Positions 9,091 to 60,651 are shown, counted from the stretch's first letter. The stretch: 64,000 nt of DNA from Anaerolineales bacterium (GCA_016932475.1 JAFGCU010000020.1:101-64100), one strand, 5' to 3'. A program made the numbers and translations. Notes: generated from the sequence alone by a model not told the origin.

Positions 9091-9958
9091 GAATCCACGA
9101 AGGAACACGAAGAAAAACCTGAAGAACACGAAGAATTAAAAAACAATTGGCGAGGGGATGGGTTCGAGATGCCGGCGCCTGCTCTCGCGAAGTGCGCAGG
9201 TTTGGTTTTTTTATCCTGCGCGTCCACGAAGCGTGGGCGGACTTAGCCGGCATCCAGATTATGCGTCATCTTCCCGTGGACCCCGGCCTAGTACACGCCG
9301 GGGTGACGTTTTTATCAGCACGCCGGGGTGACGTTTTCCCCCGAGCGTTCGTCATGCCGGCGCGTTTTTGGCCGGCATCCAGATCATGCGTCCTCATCCC
9401 GTGGACCCCGGCCTAGTACACGCCGGGGTGACGGTTTCTCGGCACGCCGGGGTGACGTTTTTATCGGCACGCCGGGGTGACTTTTTTCCCCCAAGTGTTC
9501 GTCATGCCGGCGCGTTTTTGGCCGGCATCCAGATCATGCATCATCTTCGGTGGACCCCGGCCTAGTACACGCCGGGGTGACGGTTTCTCGGCACGCCGGG
9601 GTGACGTTTTCCCCCGAGCGTTCGTCATGCCGGCGCGTTTTTGGCCGGCATCCAGATCATGCGTCATCTTCGGTGGACCCCGGCCTAGTACACGCCGGGG
9701 TGACTTTTTTTCGGCACGCCGGGGTGACGTTTTTATCAGCACGCCGGGGTGACGTTTTCCCTCGAGCGTTCGTCATGCCGGCGTGTTTTTGGCCGGCATC
9801 CAGATCATGCATCATCTTCGGTGGACCCCGGCCTAGTACACGCCGGGGTGACGTTTTTTTTAGCACGCCGGGGTGACGACTACATTTCATAGTCGGGTGG
9901 TTTTTCCAATATATCTTCGTGTGTCTTCCGATCTTCCTTTGTGTATCTTCGTGGATTC
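9091..9958. repeat. about 870-bp composite repeat region bounded by imperfect CACGAAG-rich inverted repeats
   Basis: Left 9091-9134 GAATCCACGAAGGAACACGAAG...; right 9914-9958 is its approximate reverse complement. Confidence 0.65.
9169..9877. repeat. BIME-like tandem array of five inverted REP doublets plus half-REP units
   Basis: A=GTCATGCCGGCGCGTTTTTGGCCGGCATCCA at 9351, 9501, 9624, 9772 (interrupted copy at 9169); B=TGGACCCCGGCCTAGTACACGCCGGGGTGAC at 9277, 9402, 9551, 9674, 9822. Confidence 0.92.
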
Positions 9959-10001
9959 CTCCGCATCAGGGTATAATTTCCCGGAAGCCGCCGAACTAAA
10001 A

Positions 10002-10721
10002 ATGAATCCACCAGCCATATCCTTGCTTCTGGTCGATGACGACGTTTCGATCACCGGACAGGTCGGGGCCTTCCTGACCCGCGCCGGGTACCGCGTGCAA
10101 ACCGAAGCGGACGGCGCGCGGGCTCTCGAGCAGATCCAGGCGCTCGACCCGGACCTGGTGATTCTCGATGTCCTCCTGCCCGGCATGGACGGGCGCGCGG
10201 TGCTGCGCGCGCTGCGCGCCGGCGGGGACCGACGCCCGGTGATTCTGCTGACCAAGGTCGGCAAGGCATCCGAACGGGCGTTGGCGCTCGAAGAAGGCGC
10301 CGACGACTACCTGAACAAGCCCTTTTCGGCGAGGGAACTCCTGGCCCGGATCCGGGCCGTGCTGCGGCGCGCGCACGACGCCCCGGTTCCCTTAACCTCC
10401 GCCTGGAAACTGACAGCCGGCAACCTGATCCTCGACCGCCGCGCCCGGCGCGCCGTGCTGAACGGGCAGACGATCGCCATGAAACCAAAAACGCTTGCCT
10501 TGCTCGAATACCTCATGACCCACCCCGACGAGTTGATGACGCGCGAGCGGCTGCTCAACGCGGTGTGGGGGTGGGAATACCCCGCCGGCCAGCGCACGGT
10601 GGATACGCGCGTGGCCGAACTGCGCCGGGCTTTGGGCGACGACGCCGGTCAACCCGCCTTCATCGAGACCGCCCCGAGCGAAGGATACCGGTTCATCGCT
10701 CCCGTACAGGGCGAGAAGTGA
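10002..10721 (+). CDS. OmpR/PhoB-family response regulator
   Basis: Receiver domain LVDDD, ILDVLLP, GADDYLNKPF; winged helix RTVDTRVAELRRAL...GYRF; TATAAT at 9972. Confidence 0.94.
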   Translation: MNPPAISLLLVDDDVSITGQVGAFLTRAGYRVQTEADGARALEQIQALDPDLVILDVLLPGMDGRAVLRALRAGGDRRPVILLTKVGKASERALALEEGADDYLNKPFSARELLARIRAVLRRAHDAPVPLTSAWKLTAGNLILDRRARRAVLNGQTIAMKPKTLALLEYLMTHPDELMTRERLLNAVWGWEYPAGQRTVDTRVAELRRALGDDAGQPAFIETAPSEGYRFIAPVQGEK

Positions 10722-11659
10722 TCCGCAAGCTCCTGATCTCCGCGACGCCTTTGCTCCTCTGCCTGACGGCGGGGATCGCCGTGGAAGCGCTGGCGCCCCG
10801 TTTGCCTTTGCTTTCCCTGGAAATCAGCGCCGGCTGGCTTCTCGTCCTGGCCGGCCTCGCCGCCGGCTTCCTGACTGCCTCCTTCTTCTTCCTTCATTGG
10901 TGGCATGGCATCCGCGTCGAATCCGCGGTCCAGGCGGAGAAGCAAACGCAGGTGGAAGCCCAAAACCGGTTCCTGCGCAGGTTGGATCATGAGCTGAAAA
11001 ATCCGCTGACCGGCCTGCGGGCGGCGGTGGAAAACCTGGAAGAATCCGCTTCGGAAAATCTGCTGCCGGCGACCCTCCCCGACATCCGGCTGCAGGTCGA
11101 ACGCATGGTCCGGCTGACGGGCGATTTGCGCAAACTGGCGGAACTCGAAGAGATCCCGCTCGAACAAAGCGCAGTCGATCTGGGAGATTTGCTCGAGCGG
11201 ATCGTCGAAGCCGCGCAGGCCCAGCCCCTGGGAACCGGCCGGGATATCCGCCTGGTCGTTCCGCGCGTCCCCTGGCCGCTTGCCCCGGTTATGGCGGATG
11301 AGGACCTTCTCGGTTCGGCCTTTTTCAACCTTATCGACAATGCTTTGAAATACAGCCGTAAAAGCGACGCCGTGGAGATCCGGGCCGCCAATCACGACCG
11401 TCAGATACAGGTGGAAATCGCCGATTCCGGCCCCGGTATCGCCACGGAGGAACTTCCGCGGATTTTCGAGGAGCTCTACCGCGGCGCCAACGCGCGCAGC
11501 AGCGAGGGCAGCGGGGTTGGGCTGGCGCTCGTCAAACGCATCATCGAACGGCACGGCGGCACCATCACCGTGCACAGCCGGATGAACGGCGCCACCGGCT
11601 CCATTTTTACCGTTCTTCTGCCGGCCTCGGGCGCGGGCGAGAATATGACCAAACGGTAA
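10718..11659 (+). CDS. sensor histidine kinase (2 TM, HisKA-HATPase)
   Basis: HELKNPL, NLIDNALKY, DSGPGI, GSGVGL; GTG start overlaps the regulator stop (GTGA). Confidence 0.92.
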   Translation: MIRKLLISATPLLLCLTAGIAVEALAPRLPLLSLEISAGWLLVLAGLAAGFLTASFFFLHWWHGIRVESAVQAEKQTQVEAQNRFLRRLDHELKNPLTGLRAAVENLEESASENLLPATLPDIRLQVERMVRLTGDLRKLAELEEIPLEQSAVDLGDLLERIVEAAQAQPLGTGRDIRLVVPRVPWPLAPVMADEDLLGSAFFNLIDNALKYSRKSDAVEIRAANHDRQIQVEIADSGPGIATEELPRIFEELYRGANARSSEGSGVGLALVKRIIERHGGTITVHSRMNGATGSIFTVLLPASGAGENMTKR

Positions 11660-11682
11660 CAACCGGGTGACCACTTGGTAAT
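11644..11682 (+). promoter_or_regulatory. putative response-regulator binding site: 11-bp-spaced direct repeats
   Basis: TATGAC 11644, GGTAAC 11655, GGTGAC 11666, GGTAAT 11677, followed by TTGACG at 11686. Confidence 0.5.
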
Positions 11683-11741
11683 CCGTTGACGCTATTAATA
11701 CTGGTGAAGTACATTCTCTTTTTCCTCCGCGGAGGCCCATT

Positions 11742-13868
11742 ATGAAAAAGAAAAACATCCCCTTTTTGGCATTTGTGCTCAGCCTGGTTTTCCTTTCGAT
11801 CAATTGCGGAACGCTGAACATGGATCTGGTGAATCCCAACTCCGCCGGATCGGCGGAGACCGCCGTTTCCGGCGGCGCGGAATCGACGGCCGCCGGAAAG
11901 ACGGAAATCGCTTCCTCGGGCGCAAACGAGCCTTCCGACACCGCCATGCCCATCCCGACTCAGGCGCCGTCGATTCAAATTCATGCCGAGCCGAAAACCA
12001 TCCTGGAGTATCCCGGGGGGCACATCGCCTGGTCGCCGGACGGGAAGTGGCTGATCCTGGGCGGGCGCGAAGTCCGTTTCCTGGACGCCCAGACTCTGCA
12101 GCAAACGCGGTCGATCCAGGCCGACCGTTGGGTGATGGGCATAGCGGTCTCCCCGGACAGTAAAGTCCTCGCGATGATCGACGAATCGCGCGGGGTGATG
12201 CTGTTCGACATCGCCTCCGGAAGCGAAATGCGGACGATTCCAGACTCGCGCTCCACCACCTCCGCAACCTCCGGTTCCTTCCTCGCGTTTTCCCCCGACA
12301 GCGCCACACTGGCGGTGATCCTCGGGGAAGTCGTCAAGCTGTACCGGGTTTCCGACGGCGAGGAGCTCAACACCCTGGTTCCTAAAACCGGCGGCATGTC
12401 ATCCCATTTCGGCGCGTCGTCCGTAGCCTTCTCCAAGGACGGCAGCAAGTTGTTCGTGGGTGGAATGGGGATTGCCGTGATCAACATCACCGACGGGAAG
12501 CAGGAGCAGGTATTCGGCGAGGATACGCGCTGCATGGCGCTCTCCCCGGACGGAAACCTGCTTGTGACCGCGGGAACGTTCAACAATCAGCCGGTTACGG
12601 TTTGGGATGCCGCCACCGGCAGCCCCCTGCGCACGCTGGACGAACCGGGCGACGCGGCTGTGGATATCGGCATATCGAGCATGGCATTCTCGCCGGACAG
12701 CCGGGTGCTGGCAACGGCCTCCGCCGACGTAACGATCAAACTGTGGGACGTGGCCACGGGGGCGTTGCTTCAAACGCTGGTCGGTCATACCACGGCCGTG
12801 TCCGCCCTCGGCTTTTCCCCGGACGGGAGAACCCTCGCCTCCGGAACGAAGGAGGAAGGGGATCAGGCCGGCGTACGGCTGTGGACGATCTCCAGCGGCC
12901 CGGCTCAGCCGACCGCTACCCGCTCCACTGCTTCCGTCGAGCGGCCCACGCCCATCCCGCTTTCCGCGCGCGCGATCCTACCCGAAAACGCGCCGTCGAT
13001 GAAGAAACGCTCCGCGCTCGAGGTCAGCGAAAGCGGTAGCCTGGCCTGGTCGCCGGATGGTAGCAGGCTGGTCGTCGGCGGGCGGAAGCTGCAATTCTTC
13101 CGTGTTCCCGGCCTGACCGAATCCAGCGCGCTGTCTTCCGAGATAGCGGGATTGGCAATATCTCCCAACGGCAGGATCCTGGCTGCCGCCGGATATTCCG
13201 GCGTGCGCTTGATCGATATGGCTTCCGAAAAAGAAATCCTCACCCTGCCCGGCACCAGCATCAGCACCAGTGCATTGTCCAACTCGTTCCTGGCGTTTAC
13301 ACCCGACAGCAGGACTCTGGCGGTGATTCTCGGAGACGTGGTTAAGTTGTTCGATACGGAGACCGGTCTGGAAACCGGGACTATTGTGGCCAACGGCGCC
13401 TTCCACATTGCCATCTCTCCCGATGGAACCCTGCTCTACGCCGTCGGTTGGGGCGAGCAAATCACAGTGTGGGATATTTTCACCGGCGCCAATCTTCGTT
13501 CGATCGGCACTCCTTCCTTTAGTTTCGATTACATGATCCTCTCCCCGGACGGGAGTACCCTCGCGGCCAGTTCGTTCGACGGCACGATCCTCCTTCTGGA
13601 TGCAGCGTCCGGGCGCCAACTCCACTCGCTCCAGGTATCCAGTGCGCGGATCGGCGGAATGGCCTTCTCTCCCGATGGGAAGATCCTCGCCGCCATCACC
13701 GACGGGGTGGCGATACAACTGTGGGACGTATCGAGGGGACAATTGTTAACAAACCTGACCGGCCACAGCCAAAGCATAAACTCCATCGCCTTCTCCCCAG
13801 ACGGTGCACTCCTGGCCTCCTCGTCCTATAGTGACGGCGTGTACCTTTGGGGCCTGCCAGCCGGATAG
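11742..13868 (+). CDS. secreted or lipid-anchored WD40 protein with two tandem beta-propellers
   Basis: Signal peptide ending in Cys; many AFSPDG and LWD repeats; two homologous halves joined by a Pro/Thr linker. Confidence 0.88.
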   Translation: MKKKNIPFLAFVLSLVFLSINCGTLNMDLVNPNSAGSAETAVSGGAESTAAGKTEIASSGANEPSDTAMPIPTQAPSIQIHAEPKTILEYPGGHIAWSPDGKWLILGGREVRFLDAQTLQQTRSIQADRWVMGIAVSPDSKVLAMIDESRGVMLFDIASGSEMRTIPDSRSTTSATSGSFLAFSPDSATLAVILGEVVKLYRVSDGEELNTLVPKTGGMSSHFGASSVAFSKDGSKLFVGGMGIAVINITDGKQEQVFGEDTRCMALSPDGNLLVTAGTFNNQPVTVWDAATGSPLRTLDEPGDAAVDIGISSMAFSPDSRVLATASADVTIKLWDVATGALLQTLVGHTTAVSALGFSPDGRTLASGTKEEGDQAGVRLWTISSGPAQPTATRSTASVERPTPIPLSARAILPENAPSMKKRSALEVSESGSLAWSPDGSRLVVGGRKLQFFRVPGLTESSALSSEIAGLAISPNGRILAAAGYSGVRLIDMASEKEILTLPGTSISTSALSNSFLAFTPDSRTLAVILGDVVKLFDTETGLETGTIVANGAFHIAISPDGTLLYAVGWGEQITVWDIFTGANLRSIGTPSFSFDYMILSPDGSTLAASSFDGTILLLDAASGRQLHSLQVSSARIGGMAFSPDGKILAAITDGVAIQLWDVSRGQLLTNLTGHSQSINSIAFSPDGALLASSSYSDGVYLWGLPAG

Positions 13869-13994
13869 GCGCGGCTTTCCCGATCCTGATGGACACAACC
13901 CTCCCGCGGCAAACGCCGCGGGAGGGCACCCCCGGAACGATTAAAAAAGAAAAAAACAAGTAAGTAGCCCTTCAGGCTACCCATGGGAGGAGCC

Positions 13995-15014
13995 ATGCTT
14001 AAATCCAGTCTGATCGCCGTTCCCGTCACCGCTATCGTCATCCTTTGCACCGGATTTCTGAGCGAGTTGTGCTGCTGCGCCAGTCCGTTCACCGCGGTTT
14101 TCCTGGGGCTTGCCGCCGGAGCGTTGTGCGCCTTGGTTGAAAAGCCTCTCCACAGGGATCGGGCGTTGAAGCGCGGCGCGATCGCCGGCGCAATCGCCGG
14201 ATTCGCCGCGGTCCCCGCCCAGGTGCTCGGGGAAATCGCCGTCGCCCTGGCGATAGCGGGAAGCGGTCAAGTGGATATCTCGCTGTTCGGCCTGCCGCAG
14301 GCGAGCGCCACCGTCGATTTATGGAACTGGGCCTTAAACGCCTTCTTCGCCGCCAGCCTGTACGGATTGCTCGCCGCCGCGATTATGACGGGGACGGGAG
14401 CCGCGGGCGGCGCCATATGGTTCCGCGTTTATCGAAGGAAGAACACGGAACCGGGTACCGGGGTGGACCAGCCTAAACCGGAACTGCCGGCAGATCTTCC
14501 CGGGCAGGCGCCGGATCCACGGAAAATGATTTTATCCGGCGTCATCATGGCCGGCGTGGCGTTTGTCTTTCTTCTCCTGATCAAGACAAATTGGGGATGC
14601 CTGTCGGTACCGGCGGCGGTAATCATAGGATTGGCCACCGGTATCCTTGCCGGCAACCTGGCAAGGCCGGACACTGCCGGCCGGGCGGCTGTCTTCGGGG
14701 GGATCGCCGGATTGATCGCCAGCCTTGGCGCCTCCCTCGGCGATATCATCGGCTTGTTGATCCGCATATTCCTGATCCAGACCCCGCAGGGGATTAATTC
14801 CATGACCGAAGGGTTTTACGGCATGATGGGGATGGCCGATTCGTTTGGGGCACAAACACCGGCTGAAATCCTTTTCGGTGATATTCCCATAATCTGCTGC
14901 TGCAGCACTCTTTATCTTGCCGCATTTATCGGTTTCGGCGCGCTCGGCGGCCTGTTGTGGTTCCGGCGGGAGGCGATGCCGGGTGCGCTCCGGCCGGCCG
15001 CCCCGGCGCAATAA
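13995..15014 (+). CDS. hypothetical membrane protein with internal duplication
   Basis: About 8 hydrophobic segments; two similar halves; CCC motifs near both ends; GGAGG RBS. Confidence 0.75.
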   Translation: MLKSSLIAVPVTAIVILCTGFLSELCCCASPFTAVFLGLAAGALCALVEKPLHRDRALKRGAIAGAIAGFAAVPAQVLGEIAVALAIAGSGQVDISLFGLPQASATVDLWNWALNAFFAASLYGLLAAAIMTGTGAAGGAIWFRVYRRKNTEPGTGVDQPKPELPADLPGQAPDPRKMILSGVIMAGVAFVFLLLIKTNWGCLSVPAAVIIGLATGILAGNLARPDTAGRAAVFGGIAGLIASLGASLGDIIGLLIRIFLIQTPQGINSMTEGFYGMMGMADSFGAQTPAEILFGDIPIICCCSTLYLAAFIGFGALGGLLWFRREAMPGALRPAAPAQ

Positions 15015-15042
15015 CCAGTTCCGCGGATGAGGGGCATGTAAT

Positions 15043-15117
15043 AGCCGGAAGGACACGAAGGGTTAAAATCTTAATCAACCTTCGTGTCCTTCCGGCTTTC
15101 CTTCGTGTTCTTCGCGG
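15043..15117. repeat. CACGAAG-family inverted repeat between convergent genes (may act as terminator)
   Basis: AGCCGGAAGGACACGAAGGGTT paired with AACCTTCGTGTCCTTCCGGCT. Confidence 0.6.
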
Positions 15118-15119
15118 AA

Positions 15120-15395
15120 TTAATTAATTCCGAGCAGTTCGCAAATCTTTTTCTTGTCCCAATCCACCACGATCTCCCCGCCGATATCGATGGTGGGCGT
15201 GGTTTCATTCCCGTCCGCCCAGCCGCGCACACGCGCCGCGGCCTCGCGGTCCTTGCTGATATCCACATCGACATATTTGATGTTGTGTTCTTTCAGGAAT
15301 GCGCGCGCACTCCGGCACCCCGGGCACCATTGCGTGCAATACAGGATCACCTCGGCTTTCGGTTCCGACGATCCGGTTTTTTCATTCTGCGGCAT
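15120..15395 (-). CDS. glutaredoxin-like (NrdH/mycoredoxin-like) protein
   Basis: WCPGC, VDI, GNETTPTI. Confidence 0.88.
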   Translation of the reverse strand: MPQNEKTGSSEPKAEVILYCTQWCPGCRSARAFLKEHNIKYVDVDISKDREAAARVRGWADGNETTPTIDIGGEIVVDWDKKKICELLGIN

Positions 15396-15537
15396 TCTCT
15401 CTCCTTTGAAATCTATGCAAATGGAATTCTTCTGGAAAACCCCATTTCCGGAAAGCCGCAAAGGACGCTAAGCTATTCATTGTTTTCTTTTCCAATTTTC
15501 TTTGTGTACTTAGCGGCTTCGCGGTGAAAAGGTTTTT

Positions 15538-16710: not shown

Positions 16711-16737
16711 AGTATCCCCAAAACCAAAGCAAGCCTT

Positions 16738-17166: not shown

Positions 17167-17235
17167 GTTCTCCTCCGGTTTGAAATATTCACGATCTCGG
17201 CGGGAACGAATTATAAGGGATGGCCGTGCCATGAA

Positions 17236-18189: not shown

Positions 18190-18267
18190 TAACTCTCCTT
18201 GCATAATCTGGCAATCACCGGGCAATCGATATGGCGCGGGTTTTGATTATGCATTATAAATCCCTTT

Positions 18268-19350
18268 TTATCCACCCGAATACACATTCCTGTCGCTGTT
18301 CCCTCCCGGCTTGAAAGCGGACCAAGTGACATAGAGGGATTCATCCCTGCCGGCGGAGAAGGATAAATCATGACGGGCGAAGAAAACCCCTTGTTTACCA
18401 AACCGTGCAGGGCAAGAAGCTGTTTATAATCCCCAATAACAAACTGCAGCTTCCGGATTCCGACTCATCCAGAAATGCTTCCCCGAACCAGAAATCATGG
18501 TTGTATTCGAGCGGAGTATAGATCGTTGTCCACTCCCCGGATGTGAGCTGGTACGCCGATCCCGGGTTTCGCATCCCCATCCAGGTCAGGTACAGGTTGC
18601 CGTCCTGCGCGAGAAGGAATTGCGGGCGGGTTATGTGCGAATCCGATAATACCCGCGGTTCGGACCGGGAAAGGCCATCCCCTTTGGATTCCATGAGCAT
18701 CAACCGGGCGACCTGATCGACGGCTGATTCTGAAGTAAACGCAATAAAAAAGTACCCGCGGAATCCTGCTCCGTCTCCAGCTCAGTAATAGCTAATGATC
18801 CGTCCGTCAGGCGGGTTTCTCCGAAGTAGAGAAAATTTTGATGCTCCTCGAGCGTGAAGTAGGTCGACTTTATCCACGGCGGACCGAGAAAGAACTTCCT
18901 CTCAAGCGAGAGACGGTCCGCATACCCTTTGTACCCGCTGTCCACCCGCCCGCCGGCCTGCTGGCAATTCAACCGCAGGACCGGCGACTCTCTTCTCTCG
19001 AAATAGGTGACACAAGGTTTCCCATGGCTGCCCCGCAAAAAACAGAGGAAAATCCAGCTCCTCATTTTCCATCTGTTCTTGTTAACCGTCGGAAAAGCGT
19101 CTCCGGAATTAAAAATCCGTCGAGATGGGAGATTCCCGATCGTATCCGTCTTTCCAGAATATGCGGGGGTCCTTCGGCAGGCATGACAGGAAGCGGTTTT
19201 TTCAATGTTAGCTATGGATTCCCGCTGGGAGCACCCTCGCTCCGCATTTATCATGGCTTATAAACCAGAAATGAGCCAAAAAGCTGCCCGATGGCAGACG
19301 CGGAAATGACGGAGGATAGGCTGGTTCCGTGGGGGCGTGTTGCTCATGTC
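18268..19350 (-). pseudogene. probable fragmented gene for an exported beta-propeller-like protein
   Basis: Blade-like fragments in different frames (PQFLLAQDGNLYLTW; SAGRDESLYVTW) broken by stops and frameshifts; lower GC than flanks; 5' limit approximate. Confidence 0.4.
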
Positions 19351-24355: not shown

Positions 24356-24821
24356 TTGCCAAGAAGCCTTTCGCAACCGCGCACCCGCTCATCCCTTTCT
24401 GCCCCCAACTTTTATCGGGAGAAGCTGGCCGCAGGCCGGATGAGGGCGGATATAATTACGGGTTTTTTCGCCAGGTAAATACTTGCAATGTCTTCCGAAC
24501 TACACTGGAAGACCCTCACCGGATTTTCCAGATTTCCAATCGTATCAATTTCTTCTATCTCCTGCAATCATCCAAACGAAAGGGATCGTCTGGGGTTTTT
24601 TTTCGGCACAAAAGACACTATTTTTTATCAAACCCCTGGATAAATTCCACGGAGCGCCCCTGCTTCGGAGGCAGAACTGCTCAACGCGTAAAGACAAGTG
24701 GTTTTACTCAGCGAGCGCAGGAGCTCCGCCTGACAACCTTTTTCAGAGATTTCCATATATGGTCGAGCGGTTTTTTATGGCCAAGAGAAACCCCAACGTG
24801 AAAGCCTCATCCCTCCCGGGA

Positions 24822-51465: not shown

Positions 51466-51821
51466 CACCGCAGAGACGCAGAGAACGCAGAGGAATTCTT
51501 TTTATTCGTCATTCCGGCGTGCTTTTAGCCGGAATCCACACCACACTCGTTTGTAACCACACCAGAAGAAACGCAACATCTGGATCCCCGATAAACACGC
51601 GGGTATGACGGGCTTTACCTCCATCGTCCTTCCCGTGCGTGCCCGGTTTGTTCGTCATTCCGGCGTGCTTTTAGCCGGAATCCAAAACACACTCGGATGC
51701 GACCACACTGTAAGAACACAAATACTGGATCCCCGATAAATTCACCCCCGCTTCGCATTCATCCCGGCTCATGAACCAGATGCGAGCCGGGATGCTTCGC
51801 GAGGGCAGGCTCGGGGATGAC
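51466..51821. repeat. GCAGAG periodic repeat followed by two tandem REP doublets (146-bp period)
   Basis: GTCATTCCGGCGTGCTTTTAGCCGGAATCCA at 51508 and 51654; B partners at 51581 and 51726 (the latter interrupted by a 65-bp insert). Confidence 0.85.
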
Positions 51822-51870
51822 GGTCACGCCCCGGCGGATTTATAATTCCCCCGAGGCAACGCTTTTCGAG

Positions 51871-52392: not shown

Positions 52393-52503
52393 ATTATTAC
52401 CCGAAAAATAAAAGCGGCAACCGGGCCCGGGGCGGAGACAAACCAACCCGGCGCCTGACATAAGCCGCAGCGAAAAGCAAACAACGCAATGCCCTTGCCG
52501 GAT

Positions 52504-53022
52504 TTATTGCGGCTTGCCCTCCCCCTTGATTTCATCGTACAGCAAAAGCGTGCGCGGACCCCGGCGGTGCGCTTCCCACAGCGCGGTCGAGGCTCGGGAT
52601 AGCAGTTCAATCGAACTTATGCCTTCACCACCAGGGTGCGAGGCGACCCCGGCACAGACGGACACACGGTATTCCAGCAGCTGGCGGGTGACCTGCTTGC
52701 CCTGGAATTTATCGACCAGGCGCTCGGCCGCTTTCTTCGCCCCCTCCGCATCGGATTCGGGCATGACCACCAGGTAGTTGCCCTGATAATGCCCGGGCAT
52801 ATCCACCTCGCGCAAACTTGCATGCAGAATATCGGCCAGGAAGGATTGCGCGCTTTCCAGTACATCCGGCGAGGGGTTTTCATCGAAACGCAACCCGAGG
52901 TAAAGCACCGACAGCGGACCGGGATACCGCTTGGCGCGAAGCACTTCGCCGTCGAGCAGTGATTCCAGCATCTTCTGCGGATAAAGACCGGATTCGGCGT
53001 CAAGGCGAGATTCCTGGTCCAT
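52504..53022 (-). CDS. degenerate stand-alone GGDEF-domain protein
   Basis: DAESGLY, LREVDMPGHYQGNYLVVMP, VSVCAGVA, ALWEA. Confidence 0.8.
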   Translation of the reverse strand: MDQESRLDAESGLYPQKMLESLLDGEVLRAKRYPGPLSVLYLGLRFDENPSPDVLESAQSFLADILHASLREVDMPGHYQGNYLVVMPESDAEGAKKAAERLVDKFQGKQVTRQLLEYRVSVCAGVASHPGGEGISSIELLSRASTALWEAHRRGPRTLLLYDEIKGEGKPQ

Positions 53023-53158
53023 GGGGTCCCTTCCTATACCGTCCGGCGTGCCCGGCAACGTGTCACCGGGTTATTTAATCCGAGTTTTCCGTTTTCGGCA
53101 AACGCCATAATCCGCGTTCGCGCGGCCCCGTTCGAGGATGGTGAAAAACCAACCGATC

Positions 53159-53254
53159 GTCACGCCCGCGGGGGCTTGGCGGGCATCCAGGAATCGCTGC
53201 CGTGCATGGGGCACCGGACGAACCGTTTCCCCGGCAAGTTCGCCCGGGGATGAC
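53159..53254. repeat. REP doublet downstream of tyrS
   Basis: GTCACGCCCGC-9nt-GCGGGCATCCA ... TCCCCGG-9nt-CCGGGGATGAC. Confidence 0.8.
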
Positions 53255-53275
53255 GAGTATTACTCCGAAACGGGT

Positions 53276-54511
53276 TTACACCGCTTTCTTCAAGCGGACG
53301 AATTTCCTTTTTCCCACCTGCAGGACCGGATCGCCCGCGAGCGGCACAACGCCGTTCGGATCGTTCACCGTCTCGCCGCCCAGGCGCACCCCGCCCTGCT
53401 CGATCAGGCGCCGCGCATCGGTTTTGCTTTTGGCCAATTCCAGTTCCACCATCAGGTCGGCCAGGCGTTTGCCGTCCGAAACCTGCGCCACGGGCATGTC
53501 GTCCGGCAGTTCCGATTTTTGAAAGACCTGCCGGAACTGCTCTTCGGCCGCCGCCGCCGCATCCGTCCCGTGGTAGATCTCGACGATCTCCCGCGCCAGG
53601 CGCATCTTGCCGTCGCGCGGATGCAAAGCGCCCGATTGCAGATCGCGTTCGGTCGCGGCGATCTGATCCGGGGTGAAGCGGGTCAGGAGCCGGTAGTACA
53701 GCGCCATCGCCGTATCCGGCACGCTCATCACCTTGCCGTACATATCCCCCGGCTCGGCCATGATCGGGATGTGGTTGCCGAGGGATTTGCTCATTCGGAC
53801 GACACCGTCGGTTCCGGGGAGGATCCCGAGCAGCACGCCGATGTTCGGCCGGACGCCGTAAAATTCCATAATCTTCCGGCCCGAGGTAAGGATGTTGAAG
53901 AGCTGTTCGGTCCCGCCGACTTGCACGTCGGCGCGCAGGGCGTAGGCATCGTACCCCTGCATGATCGAGTAGAAGAACTCATGCAGGTAGATGGCTTCGC
54001 CCTTATCCCAGCGCAGCCTGAAATTTTCGCGGGTGGTGAACTGCTGCACGGTGAAGTTGGATCCCAGGCGGATCAGTTCCGCGAAGGAGAGCTTGGAAAG
54101 CCACTCGGAGTTGTGGTGCACCTCGGTCTTTTCACGGTCCAAAATCCGGAATGCCTGCTCGGCGTAGGTCCGGGCGTTGGCGTTTATCTTCTCCTCCAAA
54201 AGCTGCGGGCGCAGGGTGTTTTTATCCGACGGGTCCCCCACCCGCGCGGTGTAATCGCCGATCAGGAAGACGACCGAATGCCCGAGCTCCTGGAATTGGC
54301 GCAGCTTGCGCATGGTCACGGTGTGGCCGAGATGCAGATCCGAGGAGGTGGGATCGTACCCGGCATACACGCGCAGCGGGCGCTGTTCCTTTTCGGCCAG
54401 GATCAGGCGTTCGCGGAGTTCCGCGGCCATGGCCTGCTTCAGCGCCGGGTCCCCGTATTCGGTTCCCTGCATGAGTATGGCGAGTTGTTCGTCGATCCCG
54501 GGTTTGGACAT
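53276..54511 (-). CDS. tyrS: tyrosine--tRNA ligase
   Basis: GYDPT..DLHLGH, MQGYD, GGTEQLFN, RMSKSLGN, C-terminal S4 domain. Confidence 0.96.
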   Translation of the reverse strand: MSKPGIDEQLAILMQGTEYGDPALKQAMAAELRERLILAEKEQRPLRVYAGYDPTSSDLHLGHTVTMRKLRQFQELGHSVVFLIGDYTARVGDPSDKNTLRPQLLEEKINANARTYAEQAFRILDREKTEVHHNSEWLSKLSFAELIRLGSNFTVQQFTTRENFRLRWDKGEAIYLHEFFYSIMQGYDAYALRADVQVGGTEQLFNILTSGRKIMEFYGVRPNIGVLLGILPGTDGVVRMSKSLGNHIPIMAEPGDMYGKVMSVPDTAMALYYRLLTRFTPDQIAATERDLQSGALHPRDGKMRLAREIVEIYHGTDAAAAAEEQFRQVFQKSELPDDMPVAQVSDGKRLADLMVELELAKSKTDARRLIEQGGVRLGGETVNDPNGVVPLAGDPVLQVGKRKFVRLKKAV

Positions 54512-54563
54512 TGCCTGCTCCGAAGCGGATTGGAATGGCATGCAAATGCTTCCGTGGGGCGGG

Positions 54564-54623
54564 ATTATAGCATCAACCCCGCGATTTCCGCGGGAAAAGC
54601 CCTGAAATTCCGGATGGTATAAT
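54564..54623. promoter_or_regulatory. back-to-back extended -10 promoters for tyrS (-) and the mre operon (+)
   Basis: TGCTATAAT on minus strand at 54564-54572; TGGTATAAT on plus strand at 54615-54623. Confidence 0.6.
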
Positions 54624-54651
54624 CGGTAGCTGGTTCGTTTGGGACCCCGGT

Positions 54652-54852
54652 GGTCATCCCTAGCCGAAGGCAGCCTGTCCCGAGCGCGGCGAGGGAAGGG
54701 ATTGGGAATTCCTTTCACGAACAGCCGATTCCTCGAGGCCTGAAGGCCCCTCCCCGGCTTGGAGCACCCCCGCTCCGTGGTTAACATTGCCAAAGAACCA
54801 AAGGCTGGCAATGTCACTCCGCGGGGGCAGGCGCCGGGGCAGGCGGAACGAC
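54652..54852. repeat. nested palindromic repeats in the mreB leader
   Basis: REP-like pair, each member interrupted by GCCTG/CAGGC-ended inserts; triple nesting at 54727-54852. Confidence 0.75.
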
Positions 54853-54898
54853 TCACTGCATATGATGGTGGATTTCTTTTCTTATTCCAGGAGAGACA

Positions 54899-55963
54899 TT
54901 GGCTAATCCGGTTCAGTGGCTGCTCAACCTGATCACATTAGACATCAGCATCGACCTAGGGACAGCCAACACGCTGGTTAATGTCCACGGCAAGGGCATT
55001 GTCATCAACGAGCCCTCCTGGGTGGCGATCGACAAGAAATCCCGCCGGGTGCTGAAGGTGGGCCGCGCGGCGAAGGAAATCATCGGCCGCACACCGCCCA
55101 ATGTGGTCACCATGCGCCCCATCCGCGACGGGGTAATCTCGGAATTCGACGCGACGGCGACGATGCTGGAATATTTCATCCGCCGGGTGATCAACCAGAG
55201 CGTGGTCCCGGTGCCGCTGACGCGGGTCATCGTCGGCGTGCCGGTCGGCGCCACGAGCGTGGAACGGCGGGCGGTGATCGACGCCGCCACATCGGCCGGG
55301 GCGCGCGAGGCGCTCCTGGTGGAAGAGCCGGTCGCCTCCGCGATCGGCGCCGCGCTGCCGATCCGCGGCGTGCACAGCACGATGCTGATGGACATCGGCG
55401 GCGGCACGACCGAGATCGCGGTCTTCTCCTCGCGCCGGATCCTGCTCTCCAACTCGATCCGCGTCGCCGGAGACGAACTCGACGAGAACGTCATCACCTA
55501 CCTGCGGGACAAGTACAACCTGCTGGTGGGCCAGTCGATGGCCGAGCAGGCAAAAAAGACGGTCGGCGCCGCCGCGCCCCTGAAGGAAGAGAAGGTGATG
55601 ACCGTCCGCGGCCGCAATCTGATCTCCGGGCTGCCGGAGGAGGTCGAGATCTCCTCGATCGAGATGCGCGAGGCGCTAGCGCCCTCGCTGAAAATCATCT
55701 CCCAGGCATTGCGGGACGTGGTCGAGCAGGCGCCGCCGGAGATCATGGCCGACCTGCTGGATTCCGGGCTGTGCCTGACGGGCGGGGGCGCCCTGCTCAA
55801 CGGCCTTCCGGAAAAACTCAGCGAGGAATTCAAGATCCGGGTTTGGCGGGCCGACGATCCGCTCACGTGCGTCGTCCGCGGCGCGGCCGCCGTGCTGGCT
55901 GGAATAGACCAGCACCGTGAATTCATCGCTTCTTCCGACCGGGATTACCGCGGGAAAAGGTAA
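54899..55963 (+). CDS. mreB: rod shape-determining protein MreB
   Basis: DLGTANT, RPIRDGVI, EEPVASAIGA, DIGGGTTE, LTGGGALL; TTG start. Confidence 0.95.
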   Translation: MANPVQWLLNLITLDISIDLGTANTLVNVHGKGIVINEPSWVAIDKKSRRVLKVGRAAKEIIGRTPPNVVTMRPIRDGVISEFDATATMLEYFIRRVINQSVVPVPLTRVIVGVPVGATSVERRAVIDAATSAGAREALLVEEPVASAIGAALPIRGVHSTMLMDIGGGTTEIAVFSSRRILLSNSIRVAGDELDENVITYLRDKYNLLVGQSMAEQAKKTVGAAAPLKEEKVMTVRGRNLISGLPEEVEISSIEMREALAPSLKIISQALRDVVEQAPPEIMADLLDSGLCLTGGGALLNGLPEKLSEEFKIRVWRADDPLTCVVRGAAAVLAGIDQHREFIASSDRDYRGKR

Positions 55964-55999
55964 TCCCCATTGCCGCGTTGACTCCACCCGGTTAACCCC

Positions 56000-56842
56000 A
56001 TGTCCAACTCGAAAAGACGTCTCCTGATCGCATCCGCGCTCTTCGCGGCGGCCATCGGCCTGGTGTTGCTCGGCCAGGCGGGAATGCTGGCTCCGGTCCA
56101 GGATCTTGCGCAGCGCGCCGTCACCGGTGTTCAGCGCTCGATTTCGACCGCCTTCTTTACTCTCCGCGACTTTCTGACCGCCCCGCGCAACCTGCAGGAG
56201 CTTATTCAGACCAACAGCCAGCTGGAGGAGCGCGTCGCCCAGCTCGAAGCCGAAGTGGTGACCCTGCGCGATCAAGCCGCCGAGGTCGACCAGCTGAAGG
56301 CGCTGCTTGGCGCCGCGCGCGAGGCGCCCGAGAACCGCTACCTGGCCGCGCAGGTGATCGGCCGCGACACCAGTCCGTTCCTGCATTACCTGATCCTCGA
56401 TCAGGGATCCATTGCGGGAGTGCGCCGGGGCATGCCGGTTGTGAACGAGAAAGGGCTGGTCGGCAGGATCACCGAGGTCAGCGCCTCCGCCTCCAAGCTG
56501 CAACTCATCACCGACCCGGATTCGGTCATCAACGCGCGGATCCAGGAAAGCCGCGCCGAGGGAATCCTGGTCGGACGGGCGACGGGCGAACTGGAAATGA
56601 TCTACGTCTCCCAGGACATCAAGGTCACCGTCGGGGAAATCGTCGTCACCTCCGGCCTGGGCGGCGGTTTCCCGCCGGAGATCCTGATCGGGCGGGTGGT
56701 CAGCGTTCACCGCCGCGATTACGAGCTCTACCAGACCGCGATCATCGAACCACGCAGCGATTTCTCGCGCCTGGAAATGGTGCTCATCATCACCAATTTC
56801 GAACCGGTGCTGATCGATCCGCTGCTGGAGAGAGCCCGCTAG
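56000..56842 (+). CDS. mreC: MreC
   Basis: TM, coiled coil, GLVGRI, VTSGLGGGFP. Confidence 0.94.
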   Translation: MSNSKRRLLIASALFAAAIGLVLLGQAGMLAPVQDLAQRAVTGVQRSISTAFFTLRDFLTAPRNLQELIQTNSQLEERVAQLEAEVVTLRDQAAEVDQLKALLGAAREAPENRYLAAQVIGRDTSPFLHYLILDQGSIAGVRRGMPVVNEKGLVGRITEVSASASKLQLITDPDSVINARIQESRAEGILVGRATGELEMIYVSQDIKVTVGEIVVTSGLGGGFPPEILIGRVVSVHRRDYELYQTAIIEPRSDFSRLEMVLIITNFEPVLIDPLLERAR

Positions 56843-56851
56843 GCCGCGCCG

Positions 56852-57355
56852 ATGATCTGGGCTATCGCCGTCCCGCTCCTGGCCGTCCTCTCCCTGCTCC
56901 AAACCACGATCCTCCGCCACCTGCCCCTCCTGGACGGAAACCTCGACCTGCTGCTGCTGGCCGTCTTGTGCTGGAGCCTGTTGCGGCCGGAGGAGGGCAT
57001 GATCTGGGCGGTCCTGGCGGGATCCTTTTCCGATATCTTCACCGGCGGCCCCTTCGGGGTGACGTCGATCGCCTACCTGTTCGCGGCGTTTTGCATCAGC
57101 TTCCTGCATGGGAGGCTTCGAACCCACAACCCGATCGTGGTGATGGCGATCGCCCTGTCCGGCACGATCCTCGCCCACCTGACGGCGGTCGCGCTGCTGG
57201 TCGTATTCGGCCGGTCTCTGGAGATCGGGTATCTGCTCCTGTACGTCACGCTGCCGACCGCCTTCCTCAACACCGTGGGCGCCGTCCCGGTGTATCTGAC
57301 GCTGCGTCTGTTGCACCGGATCGGCGTTCCCGTGTTAACGGAGGATACCGAATGA
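56852..57355 (+). CDS. mreD: MreD
   Basis: Hydrophobic 167-aa protein located between mreC and mrdA. Confidence 0.88.
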   Translation: MIWAIAVPLLAVLSLLQTTILRHLPLLDGNLDLLLLAVLCWSLLRPEEGMIWAVLAGSFSDIFTGGPFGVTSIAYLFAAFCISFLHGRLRTHNPIVVMAIALSGTILAHLTAVALLVVFGRSLEIGYLLLYVTLPTAFLNTVGAVPVYLTLRLLHRIGVPVLTEDTE

Positions 57356-59391
57356 GAACCCCCTCGTTCAGCGAGAATCGAGTCCAGCCGTCGCGAATCC
57401 GGTTCTTCCTGATCGGGATGACCGGGGTGTTTGCCATCTTCACCCTGCGCCTGTTCTTCATGCAGGTCATCCAGGGCGATTATTATTACGGGCTGGCGGA
57501 AAGCAACCGCACGAAGCAAACCTACGTCCCCGCTTCGCGCGGCGTGGTCTACGACCGCCGCGGAGTGCTCCTGGCGCGCAACATGCCGGCGTACAACATT
57601 ACGATCACACCCGCCGATCTTCCCGATACGGAAGCGGAGATCGAAGCGGTTTACCGACAACTTTCGCAGTTGACCGGTGTGCCGATCCGGGTCCCGGGAT
57701 CGGTCCCCTCGCAGGAATGCGCGCCCGGGCGCGGGATCGCGGACCTGGTCGACGAATGGATCGAGCTCGCCCCGTATTACGCGGTGAAAATCCAATGCGA
57801 CGCCGACGCGGAGATCGCGAAAGTCGTCCTGGAAAAATCGGCCGACATGCCGGGGGTGGGCGTGGAGGTTTCCCCGGTGCGGGATTACCCGAACGGCCGG
57901 TACACCGCGCACATCGTCGGGTACATGGGGCGCGTCCCGGCGGAATATTCCGACTACTTCAAAGAGAAGGGGTACAACCTGGATCGCGACAAGATCGGCT
58001 ACTCCGGGATCGAGGCGTACATGGAGGAAGAACTCGCCGGAACGTACGGCAGCGAACTGTGGGAGGTCGATGCGGCCGGGAAGGAGATCCGCCTGCTCGA
58101 ACCCCCCGTGCCGGCGGTGCCCGGGAAGAATATCCGCCTGACGATCGACGCCCGTCTGCAGGAAGCCGCCACGATCATCCTGGAGAAACAGATCGAGGCG
58201 ACTCGCGCGCTCAAGCCGGAATACCTGCGTAGCCCGATGCTCGGCGGCGTGGTGGTGGCGATGAATCCGAACACCGGCGAGATTCTCGCGATGGTGTCGG
58301 TGCCGACGTACGACAACCAGAAATTCTCGCGCTACATCCCGATCGAGTATTACACCGAACTGGCGACCGACATCAGCAATCCGCTCCTGAACCACGCGAT
58401 TGCCGGCACCTATCCGCCCGGATCGATCTTTAAACTGGTCACCGCAGTGGGCGCGCTCAACGAAGGGGTCGTCACTCCGGACACGCCGGTGATCTGCCGC
58501 GGGACGATCTCGATCACGCAGAAGTTCCACCCCTCCGATCCCGGGCGCGAGATGCTGTTCTACTGTTACGACCGCGAAGGGCACGGGGAAATCTCGTTCC
58601 TGCGCGGTCTGGCTCTTTCGTGCGATATTTATTTCTACAACCTGGGCGCCGGGTACAGCGGCCCGGGCGGGGTGAAGAAGGGATTGGAAATCGAAGGGAT
58701 AAAGCAATACGCCCGGGCGGTTGGCTACGACCGGGCTTTGGGAATCGAACTGTTCGGCGAACGCAGCGGCCTGATCCCGGACAAGGACTGGAAGCGGATA
58801 AACCAAGGCGAGAACTGGGCCACCGGCGACACGTACATCGCCACCATCGGCCAGGGCTACGTGGACGTGACGCCGCTGCAGGTGGCCGAATCCATCGCCG
58901 TCATCGCCAGCAACGGGAAGGTCATGAAGCCCACCCTGATAAAAGAGTACCTGGACGGGGAAGGAAACGTGGTCGAAATCCACGAGCCGGAAATGCTCTA
59001 CGACATCACCGATGATATCCATGACGAACTGTACGACACCGTCACGGTCCAGCCCTGGGTGCTCAAGATGGTGCAGCAGGGCATGCGGCTGGCGGTGACG
59101 GAAGGAACCGCCGCGGATTACGCGCAAATCGAGAACATTCCCACCGCGGGGAAGACGAGCACGGCGGAATATTGCGACGACATCGCCCAATCGCGAAACC
59201 TGTGCAAACGCGAAGCCTGGCCGACCCATGCCTGGTACGGCGCCTACGGCCCGTACGAGAATCCGGAAATCGTCGTGGTGGCATTTGTTTACGACGGCGG
59301 CGAGGGCGCGGTCACGGCCGGCCCGGTCGTGCGCGACGTGCTGCGGGCTTACTTCGCGCTCAAGACGATCGATCTCGAGCAGGGCGGATGA
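57352..59391 (+). CDS. mrdA: penicillin-binding protein 2
   Basis: RGVVYDR, YPPGSIFK (SxxK), SCD, IGQG, KTST. Confidence 0.93.
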   Translation: MRTPSFSENRVQPSRIRFFLIGMTGVFAIFTLRLFFMQVIQGDYYYGLAESNRTKQTYVPASRGVVYDRRGVLLARNMPAYNITITPADLPDTEAEIEAVYRQLSQLTGVPIRVPGSVPSQECAPGRGIADLVDEWIELAPYYAVKIQCDADAEIAKVVLEKSADMPGVGVEVSPVRDYPNGRYTAHIVGYMGRVPAEYSDYFKEKGYNLDRDKIGYSGIEAYMEEELAGTYGSELWEVDAAGKEIRLLEPPVPAVPGKNIRLTIDARLQEAATIILEKQIEATRALKPEYLRSPMLGGVVVAMNPNTGEILAMVSVPTYDNQKFSRYIPIEYYTELATDISNPLLNHAIAGTYPPGSIFKLVTAVGALNEGVVTPDTPVICRGTISITQKFHPSDPGREMLFYCYDREGHGEISFLRGLALSCDIYFYNLGAGYSGPGGVKKGLEIEGIKQYARAVGYDRALGIELFGERSGLIPDKDWKRINQGENWATGDTYIATIGQGYVDVTPLQVAESIAVIASNGKVMKPTLIKEYLDGEGNVVEIHEPEMLYDITDDIHDELYDTVTVQPWVLKMVQQGMRLAVTEGTAADYAQIENIPTAGKTSTAEYCDDIAQSRNLCKREAWPTHAWYGAYGPYENPEIVVVAFVYDGGEGAVTAGPVVRDVLRAYFALKTIDLEQGG

Positions 59392-59402
59392 TGAGCGTAT
59401 AT

Positions 59403-59544
59403 GTCATTCCGAGGAGCCGAAGGCTCCGAGGAACCGGTTTCGCGACGGGTCAACCGGCGAATGTCATGCCGGCGCGAACCTGGCCGGCATCCATTTGACT
59501 CGCCGAAAGTCGCCGAACCCCGGCTTCGACCACGCCGGGGTGAC
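59403..59544. repeat. long REP plus REP doublet between mrdA and minC
   Basis: GTCATTCCGAGGAGCCGAAGGCTCCGAGGAAC; A copy at 59463-59493, B copy at 59514-59544. Confidence 0.82.
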
Positions 59545-59661
59545 GAAAAAAAACTGGAACACCAGGTGACATACCCGCGGCAAGTCACCGATACTTCAGC
59601 GCCGAAAACGGCGCTTCATAATGACGGGATGCGCATGCTATAATGAAATTTGACATTCGAT

Positions 59662-60378
59662 ATGCCGCTATCCGTCAGCGTTAAGGGTATCCACGAAGGC
59701 CTCCTGATCACTCCCGGAGAGGGAAATTGGGAAGATGCGTTCTCCTCCCTCCTGGAACATCTGGATTCGAAGCCGGATTTTTTCTTCGGCGCCCAAGCCA
59801 TCATCCAGCTGGGATCGTATCCTCTGCACGCGGCCGATCTGGCCACGCTGCGCAGCGCGCTGGCGGACCGCGGCCTCGGGCTGCATTCCATCCTTTCGGA
59901 GAATCCCGCGACGGTCGAGGCGGCCAGGAGCCTGGGGCTCGGCACCTCGCTGCCCAAACGCGAGCTGAAGGAATCGCCGATCTCGACCGAGTTGCGCGGG
60001 ATGGACGCGATTTTCCTTCAGCAGACCCTCCGTTCCGGGAACAGCATCCACTTCCCCGGGCACGTGACCGTGCTTGGGGACGTTAATCCGGGCGCGGAGA
60101 TCATCGCCGGCGGGAGCATCATCGTATGGGGGCATTTGCGCGGGACGGTGCATGCGGGCGCGCAGGGCGATGAAACGTCGGTCGTCTGCGCGATGGACCT
60201 CAGCCCGATGCAGCTGCGGATCGCCTCGCACGCGGCCACCTCCCCGCCCCGCAAGGGGAAGACCCAGCCGGAGATCGCATCCCTGCACGATGGCCGGCTG
60301 GTGGCGGAACCGTGGAGCCCCAAGGATAAACCGAAGGCGGCGGACGGGAAAATCAAGGGCGAGGATATCCAGGGATGA
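59662..60378 (+). CDS. minC: septum site-determining protein MinC
   Basis: TLRSG, VLGDVNPGAEIIAGG, WGHLRGTVHAG, QLRIA; alternative TTG start at 59650; TGCTATAAT at 59636. Confidence 0.93.
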   Translation: MPLSVSVKGIHEGLLITPGEGNWEDAFSSLLEHLDSKPDFFFGAQAIIQLGSYPLHAADLATLRSALADRGLGLHSILSENPATVEAARSLGLGTSLPKRELKESPISTELRGMDAIFLQQTLRSGNSIHFPGHVTVLGDVNPGAEIIAGGSIIVWGHLRGTVHAGAQGDETSVVCAMDLSPMQLRIASHAATSPPRKGKTQPEIASLHDGRLVAEPWSPKDKPKAADGKIKGEDIQG

Positions 60379-60651
60379 GATTCTCCGGCTTCAAGCGCCC
60401 TCGCTTCGCAATCGGCATTGCCCAAAGACCAAAAGCCGGCAATGCCGCTCCGCGAGGGCAGGCGCCGGAATGAAGCATCGATCGGATTGGATTCAGGACG
60501 GGCCCGCCCTCCGAGCGATGCGCATCGGGGATCTTCCGATGCGATGAATTCGCGAGGGGGGAAGGCGAGGGATCGGTTGATCTTTCCAGCCGATTCCTCG
60601 GGCTCGTCGAGCCCTTCCCGGCCAAGACCACGCCAGGACAGGCGGAATGAC
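60379..60651. repeat. nested palindromic repeats between minC and minD
   Basis: REP-B-like host with a 65-bp insert at 60399-60463; second REP with a CAGGC-ended insert near 60592-60651. Confidence 0.75.

Follow-up and report, generated by a model that had tools for sequence, protein, structure and literature searches.

How does one short hairpin come to lie inside the loop of another, many times over and always at the same point? The question is raised by a 64,000-nucleotide stretch of an Anaerolineales bacterium (JAFGCU010000020.1:101-64100; the whole stretch is referred to here as the window), which is contig C39 of G000, the genome under study, a 3.65 Mb assembly of 129 contigs with 61% G+C. 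An initial annotation, made from the sequence by itself, had described four copies of a structured element inside repetitive extragenic palindromes (REPs), and all four are present in the window with the sequences quoted. The observation proves to be real and understated. The element, which we call the module, is a nested palindromic DNA repeat, a "REP within a REP", and a new variant within repeat DNA of the type of REPs and bacterial interspersed mosaic elements (BIMEs). It is separable from its host, because its position and orientation are fixed, it occurs in other hosts, orthologous sites are found both empty and filled, and its phyletic range is its own. That the module is independently mobile is likely but unproven, and we lean toward the explanation that it enters hairpin loops independently through a trans-acting enzyme. 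Below, G-numbers other than G000 denote relatives, g1 is the genus of G000, and g2, g3 and g4 are other genera.

A hairpin module with conserved ends and a variable interior

The module is built on an outer stem of 7 bp (CCCYCGC/GCGRGGG), inside which lie a symmetric 3-by-3 internal loop of pyrimidines, two more covarying pairs (C-G 20, T-A 9, A-T 1, G-C 1), a bulge, and a core hairpin of 10-12 bp whose loop of 12-13 nt is rich in A (49%). The initial annotation had placed the copies correctly and begun each of them one C too late; starting one C earlier is what gives the outer stem its 7 bp. The conserved 3' end that it reported is a CAGGC tag, present in 38 of 40 aligned copies. Conservation had been overstated in two other respects: ACCA occurs in 13 of 40 inner loops, what is conserved being the length and A content of the loop, and the doubled CTYCG, which reflects the symmetric internal loop of pyrimidines, consists of a left pentamer that is mostly CTTCG and a right one that is mostly CTCCG, the two being identical in 9 of 40 copies. 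The same 40 copies have 27 distinct inner arms, which group into a few subfamilies that are met again in the sister genus, as expected for long-lived repeat lineages.

The common outer stem and CAGGC enclose interiors of very different length, namely 3 nt (n = 11), 46-49 nt (n = 22) and 107 nt (n = 10), as well as a 9-nt REP-like loop in other contexts; the interior of a second module type, M2, shares the same outer stem. Taking the segment between the two CTYCG repeats out of the long form yields the short form. The 107-nt form is part of a mosaic of about 260 bp, of which there are at least 30 copies with 75-96% identity, many at contig ends. The mosaic runs from an empty REP through a spacer to a REP whose module contains, besides an inner hairpin, an M2 unit and tandem 12-nt GCGGGGGCAGGC copies. 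Its sites in G000 include C40:6520-6790 and others on C95, C30, C58, C63, C17, C4 and C3. Since so many of its copies end contigs, the mosaic breaks the assemblies of these metagenome-assembled genomes.

For detection we built a covariance model, R1, on 40 copies, of which 37 lie off the window and were hand-chosen among 80 hairpin-plus-tail candidates; one more hand-picked copy, on contig C56, was left out of the alignment. For the four window copies R1 gives 58-88 bits (E = 9e-17 to 2e-10). The scan, which the initial annotation had proposed, also matches two eroded window copies that this annotation had overlooked, together with one weak M2 match, and, with a ceiling of 150 scored candidates per genome, gives 117 matches across G000. 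By a strict pattern there are 22 long-form modules in G000, and the 3' core CTYCGCGRGGGCAGGC occurs there 34 times, against 0 for the pattern read backwards; with the E-values of the four copies, this excludes chance.

A long-looped CGTC-type REP as host

Removal of the module restores a host hairpin with a 9-nt loop, as had been claimed. The host is a short hairpin with variable arms of 7-8 bp (e.g., ATGCCGGC, ATTCCCGC; the commonest are TGCCGGC, CCCCGGC, TCCCGGC, TGCCCGC and TTCCCGC) and a loop ending in CAC or CGC. The GACG that follows it on the module strand is CGTC on the opposite strand and, in copies read individually on this tag strand, the arms are preceded by A and followed by TCCA. 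The host is therefore a CGTC-type REP with a long loop. Empty host REPs are numerous in G000, with 234 carrying a TGA tail (2 in a reversed-genome control) and 253 by a second count, and the pattern CGTCAYNCCSGCGTG-6 nt-GCSGG has 130 matches in G000 and 0 when read backwards. At every locus inspected, host REPs form doublets, head to head, with the CGTC tags outward and a spacer of about 40 nt.

Within these hosts the position of the module is invariant. It follows 8 nt of host loop and directly precedes the host 3' arm. In 55 of 55 clear module-bearing CGTC-type REPs it lies on one strand and abuts this arm, and none is inverted. A further 11 cases that our script labelled "elsewhere" are apparent wrong arm pairings in the examples printed.

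The fixed site within REPs thus agrees with the initial annotation, which had taken the targeting to be REP-specific; the module is, however, also found in unrelated host palindromes. Palindromes of the form CCTTCTCCCAGC-4 nt-GCTGGGAGAAGG (CCCAGC-NNNN-GCTGGG) are often empty, and several carry a short, long or M2 module, which here follows 3-4 loop bases. About 20 sites of this family occur in G000 (e.g., C2:28193, C5:45496 and C12:4330), often adjoining GGTGGCCGAAGGCCGGATGAGGG. Hairpins with a 3' arm starting GCTCAG also host the module and have empty counterparts. The left flank of the module reads CA in 44 of 96 paired cases, some of these pairings being spurious, and TA, GA or GG in other hosts.

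A host of another kind is found in the relative G006 (C3:18000-68000), where same-orientation units have GCCCAAC and GTTGGGC end boxes like those of integron attC sites, a likeness that was judged, here and for contig C32 of G000, from the end boxes. Two internal points of these units are occupied, one by the 9-nt-loop form and the other by the long form, and a homologous unit on C32 has neither insert. The attC R'' (RYYYAAC) and R' (GTTRRRY) boxes are present in the larger host units of G006 and C32 and absent from the module. Short open reading frames (ORFs) with low G+C at third codon positions separate the G006 units, and the whole resembles a cassette array. As to a bias by replication strand, 110 matches in G006 include a run of plus-strand ones at 18-68 kb, within the region of this array; outside it no clear strand switch is seen by eye.

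Filled and empty sites at orthologous loci

Comparison of orthologous loci, also proposed initially, revealed that the same REP is empty in one species and filled in another at three of the four loci occupied by window copies. At the copy 4 locus G006 and G007 have the REP without a module, G000 and G004 have it filled, and G002 and G005 have no REP; in G004 an empty REP (loop TTCGAGCAC) stands beside a filled one (TTCGAGCA + module). At the copy 1 locus the REP is empty in G006 and G004, missing from G007 and G005, and filled in G002 by a module with a different inner hairpin. The REP at the copy 2 locus is marked by the rare arms ATCCCCGA/TCGGGGAT. It lacks an insert in G007, G002 and G005; G006 has it filled by the subfamily seen in G000, G004 by another subfamily, and in G003 the insert is a different hairpin, placed toward the 5' side of the loop. 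At this locus both G006 and G004 join a foreign 5' arm to the resident 3' arm in their filled REPs, and G000 has an empty chimera of the opposite kind. These chimeric arms indicate that REPs commonly exchange strands at the loop/3'-arm junction or close to it, and that modules can travel in the exchange.

The phyletic range of the module is narrower than that of its host. The empty host REP pattern occurs in 7 of 7 g1 relatives, 4 of 4 g4 genomes, 6 of 6 g3 genomes and 0 of 3 g2 genomes. The module, both by motif and by R1, is restricted to g1 (19-128 matches in the other g1 genomes) and g4 (13-27), with 0 R1 matches in 9 genomes of g2 and g3 and no motif match in 20 searched genomes from other families of the order.

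Stem pairing points to DNA

The stems of the module pair in 88.4% of 760 cells (40 aligned copies, 19 pairs), compared with 74.0% for shuffled partners. None of 500 partner shuffles reached the observed value, and sliding the partners by 1-3 columns lowers it to 37-50%. Both sides change in 15 of the 19 pairs (106 cells). The initial claims that inner stems differ in sequence yet pair, and that the outer stem covaries, are thus borne out, the latter by exchanges of T-A and C-G such as those at pair 13-69 (UA 24, CG 7). Folded as DNA, the module is more stable than its dinucleotide shuffles (mean z -3.1), and the opposite strand, on which the CGRAG/CGRAG internal loop might, as initially suggested, form tandem sheared G-A pairs, is only slightly more stable still, in 34 of 40 copies.

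Whether such stems are selected as single-stranded DNA or as RNA had been left as alternatives, and the evidence favours the former. Mismatches in the stems are divided between G-T (24) and A-C (25), which fits Watson-Crick palindromy read on either strand, whereas an RNA should show an excess of G-U. By a crude gene call, modules lie sense and antisense to neighbouring genes in 23 and 19 cases at 3' ends and in 21 and 18 cases at 5' ends, and all four gene arrangements occur around them (14, 9, 9 and 8). Rfam gives 0 matches in the window at the gathering threshold and, for 20 copies, nothing at E<=1, the only hits being two microRNA models far below threshold. Contigs of two metatranscriptomes, one DNA source and one other DNA run, compared with the window, yielded only scattered pieces, from which we draw no conclusion, and a single RNA-library contig of depth 2.5 carries another module copy that is indistinguishable from DNA carry-over. 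Given stems that covary, G-T mismatches as frequent as A-C, the lack of a gene orientation bias and the existence of decayed copies, we consider it highly probable that the selected structure is DNA palindromy rather than RNA.

How the module may reach its hosts

The explanation that we favour, with modest confidence, is independent entry into hairpin loops by means of an enzyme acting in trans. The unit is a hairpin with the paired ends CCCYCGC/GCGRGGG and the CAGGC tag behind it; on the other strand the tag comes first and the stem-loop second, as in a REP. The cargo in the loop of the unit varies: it is 3 nt, a REP-like loop of 9 nt, a single variable inner hairpin, as in the 60-66 nt form described initially, or a longer mosaic. 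Such a unit may enter the single-stranded loop of folded hairpins at the loop/3'-arm junction, in one orientation, by the action of an enzyme that cuts and rejoins folded single-stranded DNA; our best guess would be an HUH/Y1 enzyme, similar to IS200 transposases or to REP-associated tyrosine transposases (RAYTs). Recombination between REP copies would then shuffle the unit further. The stems would covary because hairpin formation by DNA is needed for copying, or because copying restores them, with no RNA implied. Of the initial proposal of a non-autonomous mobile element, a discrete, non-coding, structure-keeping unit with a fixed site and with presence/absence differences stands, and transposition itself is unproven.

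Several observations weigh against independent entry. The host junction shows no target duplication, with at most one ambiguous C. Nor does the inner pentamer repeat supply one: its halves are seldom identical and differ consistently between left and right, so that the doubled CTYCG is inherited structure and not a fresh target duplication. A uniform orientation would also be expected from one ancient insertion spread by REP copying or gene conversion, and the chimeric host arms around modules indicate that recombination moves them. At the copy 3 locus, REP and module are found together in G007 and G004 and are both absent from five other genomes. Gain and loss are indistinguishable without a dated tree, and precise loss of the hairpin by slippage is plausible; the module ends pair, which invites precise deletion, so that empty sites could be losses.

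The enzyme search adds to the same side of the balance. G000 has one weak Y1 match (22.6 bits), flanked by a different palindrome. Strong Y1 genes are found in 4 of 7 other g1 genomes, 4 of 4 g4, 1 of 3 g2 and 0 of 6 g3, and none of the 16 Y1 loci whose flanks were read is bordered by the long form of the module. The distribution of integron integrase does not follow the module either: the gene is present in G000 (C120:7408-8346; 447.8 bits, cut-off 265), in 5 of 8 g1 genomes, 3 of 4 g4, 3 of 6 g3 and 0 of 3 g2, and was not found in G005, G006 (a 77%-complete assembly) or G013, all of which are rich in modules. A check for co-occurring enzyme families, suggested at the outset, therefore points to neither Y1 nor integron integrase. 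In G000, a junction-pair screen, which was noisy, gave no long protein-coding version with module ends. Within the window, in line with the initial annotation, no transposase, integrase or reverse-transcriptase family is matched by the 51 ORFs scanned (Pfam, E<=1e-5), 13 of which are without any Pfam family. Nor do these 51 ORFs match IS110, GIY-YIG or reverse transcriptase, for which a genome-wide search was not made.

One Y1 gene deserves mention as a lead, though not a link, to the module. Both flanks of this gene in G004 (C84:1-2329) consist of units of about 180 bp with a hairpin composed of CCCCCGC, a 9-nt loop, GCGGGGG and CAGGC; a homologue in G018 (C8:46300-48628) is flanked by another palindrome, without a module-type stem. 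The small Y1 genes at these two loci are both flanked by GCGCGGGCAT-NA-ATGCCCGCGC hairpins. The Y1 gene of G000 is RAYT-like and encodes 209 residues (C90:962-4312, ORF 1300-1929 on the minus strand) with HxH and YIHQNP motifs; on both sides it has a GACCTGTCAGGTC-type palindrome with about 8 genome copies, and it has orthologues in G001 and G002. A gene lying between two same-strand module copies on contig C2 was also considered and, judged by eye, looks like an aldolase and not a transposase.

The alternative that fares best, although we think it unlikely, is that the module is a passenger: it would have entered one REP once and spread through copying of REPs or doublets, homologous recombination or gene conversion, the empty sites being ancestral or the result of hairpin deletion. 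The single orientation and position in all 55 hosts, the chimeric arms in G006 and G004 and the empty chimera in G000 at the copy 2 locus, the joint coming and going of REP and module at the copy 3 locus, and the lack of an enzyme and of a target duplication are all in keeping with it. What it does not readily explain is that modules occur in hosts sharing neither arm nor loop sequence with the CGTC REP, that different modules occupy the same orthologous REP while G000 keeps both resident arms, and that the adjacent empty and filled copies in G004 have the same loop remnant.

Enzyme-free change by template switching or slippage during replication at hairpins, which makes and perfects inverted repeats and deletes between short direct repeats, is improbable. 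It would suit the near-perfect arms without G-T bias, the tandem 12-nt duplications in the mosaic and the relation between short and long forms, but it would not place the same 7-bp ends, the CAGGC tag and the inner subfamilies in many hosts of two genera, nor produce one site in 55 of 55 cases. We give very little weight to selection on transcripts as the force that preserves the stems, in a structured RNA serving as small RNA, terminator, stabiliser or cis-regulatory element. Significant covariation, folding beyond shuffled sequence and the location of some copies within operons (e.g., between minC and minD) are what such an RNA would lead one to expect, yet the balance of G-T and A-C where an RNA read from one strand would give a G-U excess, the indifference to gene orientation and context, the decayed copies, the presence of more than 100 copies per genome, inside other repeats, and the lack of an Rfam match all count against it. 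Least credible of all is an integron-related origin, in which attC sites gave rise to the module or the integron integrase (an enzyme that also acts on folded single strands) moves it, since, for all that G000 has an integrase and that modules lie inside the attC-like sites of the G006 array, the module ends have no R box (GTTRRRY), 3 of 6 g3 genomes have the integrase where no module is found, and the module-rich G005, G006 and G013 yielded none.

Independent entry also admits a wider version, which we regard as possible and put forward tentatively: the module may be a minimal, single-hairpin mobile DNA that targets shape and not sequence. Insertion would take place at the loop/3'-arm junction of any hairpin extruded as single-stranded DNA, the targets including CGTC REPs, other palindromes and integron attC-like sites, and the enzyme would be one not yet recognised. 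Repeated nesting would then give rise to three-level hairpins and to the 260-bp mosaic.

Comparison with known repeat families

Like REPs in the wide sense of the term, the module has a tag beside a GC-rich stem-loop, a high copy number and an intergenic location. Its host shares with the published CGTC REPs, as described in the sections cited here of the 2013 survey by Di Nocera, De Gregorio and Rocco, the CGTC tag, an 8-bp stem with A-T at its first two positions, a CCA-type tail, head-to-head dimers, high copy number and the lack of a flanked transposase gene; according to those sections no transposase gene is flanked by CGTC REPs and no dedicated transposase is reported for them (PMC3733652). 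It differs in that the described loops are 4-5 nt long, compared with 9 nt here, and the same sections list Chloroflexi with GTAG repeats rather than CGTC and describe no nested module (PMC3733652). Nesting as such has a parallel among GTAG repeats. The loops of GTAG-3 and GTAG-14 have self-complementary inner parts of up to 27 bp, and GTAG-23 of Thermomicrobium roseum lies inside CCGSSCC(n3,4)GGSSCGG, of which there are hundreds of empty targets (PMC3733652). As in the present case, one repeated hairpin there has a further hairpin in its loop, and empty targets exist as well; the module differs in having conserved ends and a tag of its own, a variable cargo and several unrelated hosts, and filled and empty orthologous sites are documented here, whereas the account of the GTAG repeats, in the sections cited, reports none (PMC3733652).

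The module also resembles BIMEs of enterobacteria, which in the accounts cited are modular and assembled combinatorially from few palindromic motifs, the composite of about 260 bp being such a mosaic; in BIMEs the units stand side by side, whereas here they are nested in loops (PMC3333891, PMC2817692). REPINs are described as non-autonomous inverted REP doublets that a Y1 enzyme would move in trans, and share with the module both non-autonomy and stems kept by compensatory change (PMC3116915, PMC3337134). Unlike REPINs with their RAYTs, neither this REP nor the module flanks a cognate RAYT at the Y1 loci read in G000 and its relatives. A REP-associated Y1 enzyme is reported to cleave and recombine single-stranded REPs in vitro, the loop of the E. 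coli REP having a structural role only (PMC8266576).

Miniature inverted-repeat transposable elements (MITEs) and the small palindrome-associated elements derived from IS200/IS605 are short and non-coding, with inverted ends and many copies. The module shares all of these traits, and differs in having no target duplication, an inverted end of only 7 bp and no parent element that we could find. In contrast to IS200/IS605 derivatives, its two ends form one hairpin together and not one hairpin each, and it lacks their fixed tetra- or pentanucleotide left flank. Group IIC-attC introns and integron cassettes are inserted under the guidance of a folded hairpin rather than a long sequence. They carry a ribozyme and a reverse transcriptase, or an attC site, and the module has neither. 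Our literature search found no hairpin module with conserved ends of its own nested in REP loops, no inner unit with a tag, variable cargo, unrelated hosts and orthologous filled and empty states, and no repeat study of Anaerolineae.

Features and gene neighbourhoods in the window

Table 1 Modules, hosts and related repeats located in the window
Feature	Position	Strand	Description	Score or context
Module copy 1	9177-9237	-	outer stem CCCACGC/GCGAGAG, inner GCGCAGG-type hairpin, CAGGC end	58 bits, E 2e-10
Host CGTC-type REP of copy 1	9168..9254	-	arms GATGCCGGC/GCCGGCATC, 8-nt loop remnant	
Tandem array of empty REP doublets	9283..9853	.	pattern matches at 9283-9308, 9408-9433, 9557-9582, 9771-9796, 9828-9853	adjoins copy 1
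Decayed module within CGTC-type REP	19230-19302	+	inner and outer 3' stems eroded	43 bits
Decayed module-like copy	24653-24725	+		35.8 bits
Empty CGTC-type REP	51507..51532	+	9-nt loop, first half of doublet	paralogue at 51653-51678
Module copy 2	51745-51810	+	inner ATCCCGGCTC-type hairpin	88.3 bits
Host REP of copy 2	51729..51822	+	rare arms ATCCCCGA/TCGGGGAT and GACG tag	
Module copy 3	54767-54832	+	inner ACATTGCC-type hairpin	in the gap separating tyrS and mreB, which diverge
Host hairpin of copy 3	54752..54839	+	arms CCCCGGC/GCCGGGG	
Module copy 4	60398-60463	+	inner GGCATTGCC-type hairpin	between minC and minD
Host REP of copy 4	60383..60471	+	arms CTCCGGC/GCCGGAA	
Second module type, M2	60499-60562	-	similar outer stem and GC-rich end, interior of two small hairpins	weak, 19.5 bits

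Modules are intergenic in 36 of 41 cases by the crude gene call. Three of the five remaining cases are window copies 1, 3 and 4, and the other two lie on contigs C70 and C73. The ORFs called over the three window copies are all on the minus strand (7646-9253, 53279-54856 and 60021-61460). The host REP of copy 1 lies 5' of a minus-strand MgsA-type AAA+ gene whose ORF spuriously spans it; in this ORF the Pfam domain begins 85 residues in, and in the tyrS ORF that spans copy 3 it begins 156 residues in. The ORF over copy 4 has no Pfam match and overlaps minC and minD on the other strand. The three copies are thus outside real coding sequence. Repeats of this kind yield long false ORFs across true gene starts, and automatic annotation would mis-start genes or invent them.

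In a doublet of head-to-head REPs, the host REP of copy 2 forms the second half. Next to copy 1, at 9250-9900, five tandem REP doublets with a period of about 125-270 bp and extra partial 3' arms (GCACGCCGGGGTGACG repeated) represent a local amplification of the host repeat. Upstream of copy 3, at 54620-54750, lies a repeat unit of another type, GTCATCCC...GAGGGAAGGGAT, with a GATTCCTCG...GGCC hairpin. G000, G007 and G004 share this unit, G002 has part of it, and four relatives lack it.

Implications for REP biology

How REPs spread is a long-standing question, and CGTC REPs are without a known enzyme. A module that fills one REP and leaves the same REP empty in a sister species is a tractable marker of recent events, and it also offers a defined single-stranded substrate on which candidate enzymes can be tried. 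If targeting by shape were true, the module would represent a new class of structure-targeting, non-autonomous element, its copies would be a direct record of the sites at which hairpins are extruded in vivo, and attC sites and REPs would be reached by one process.

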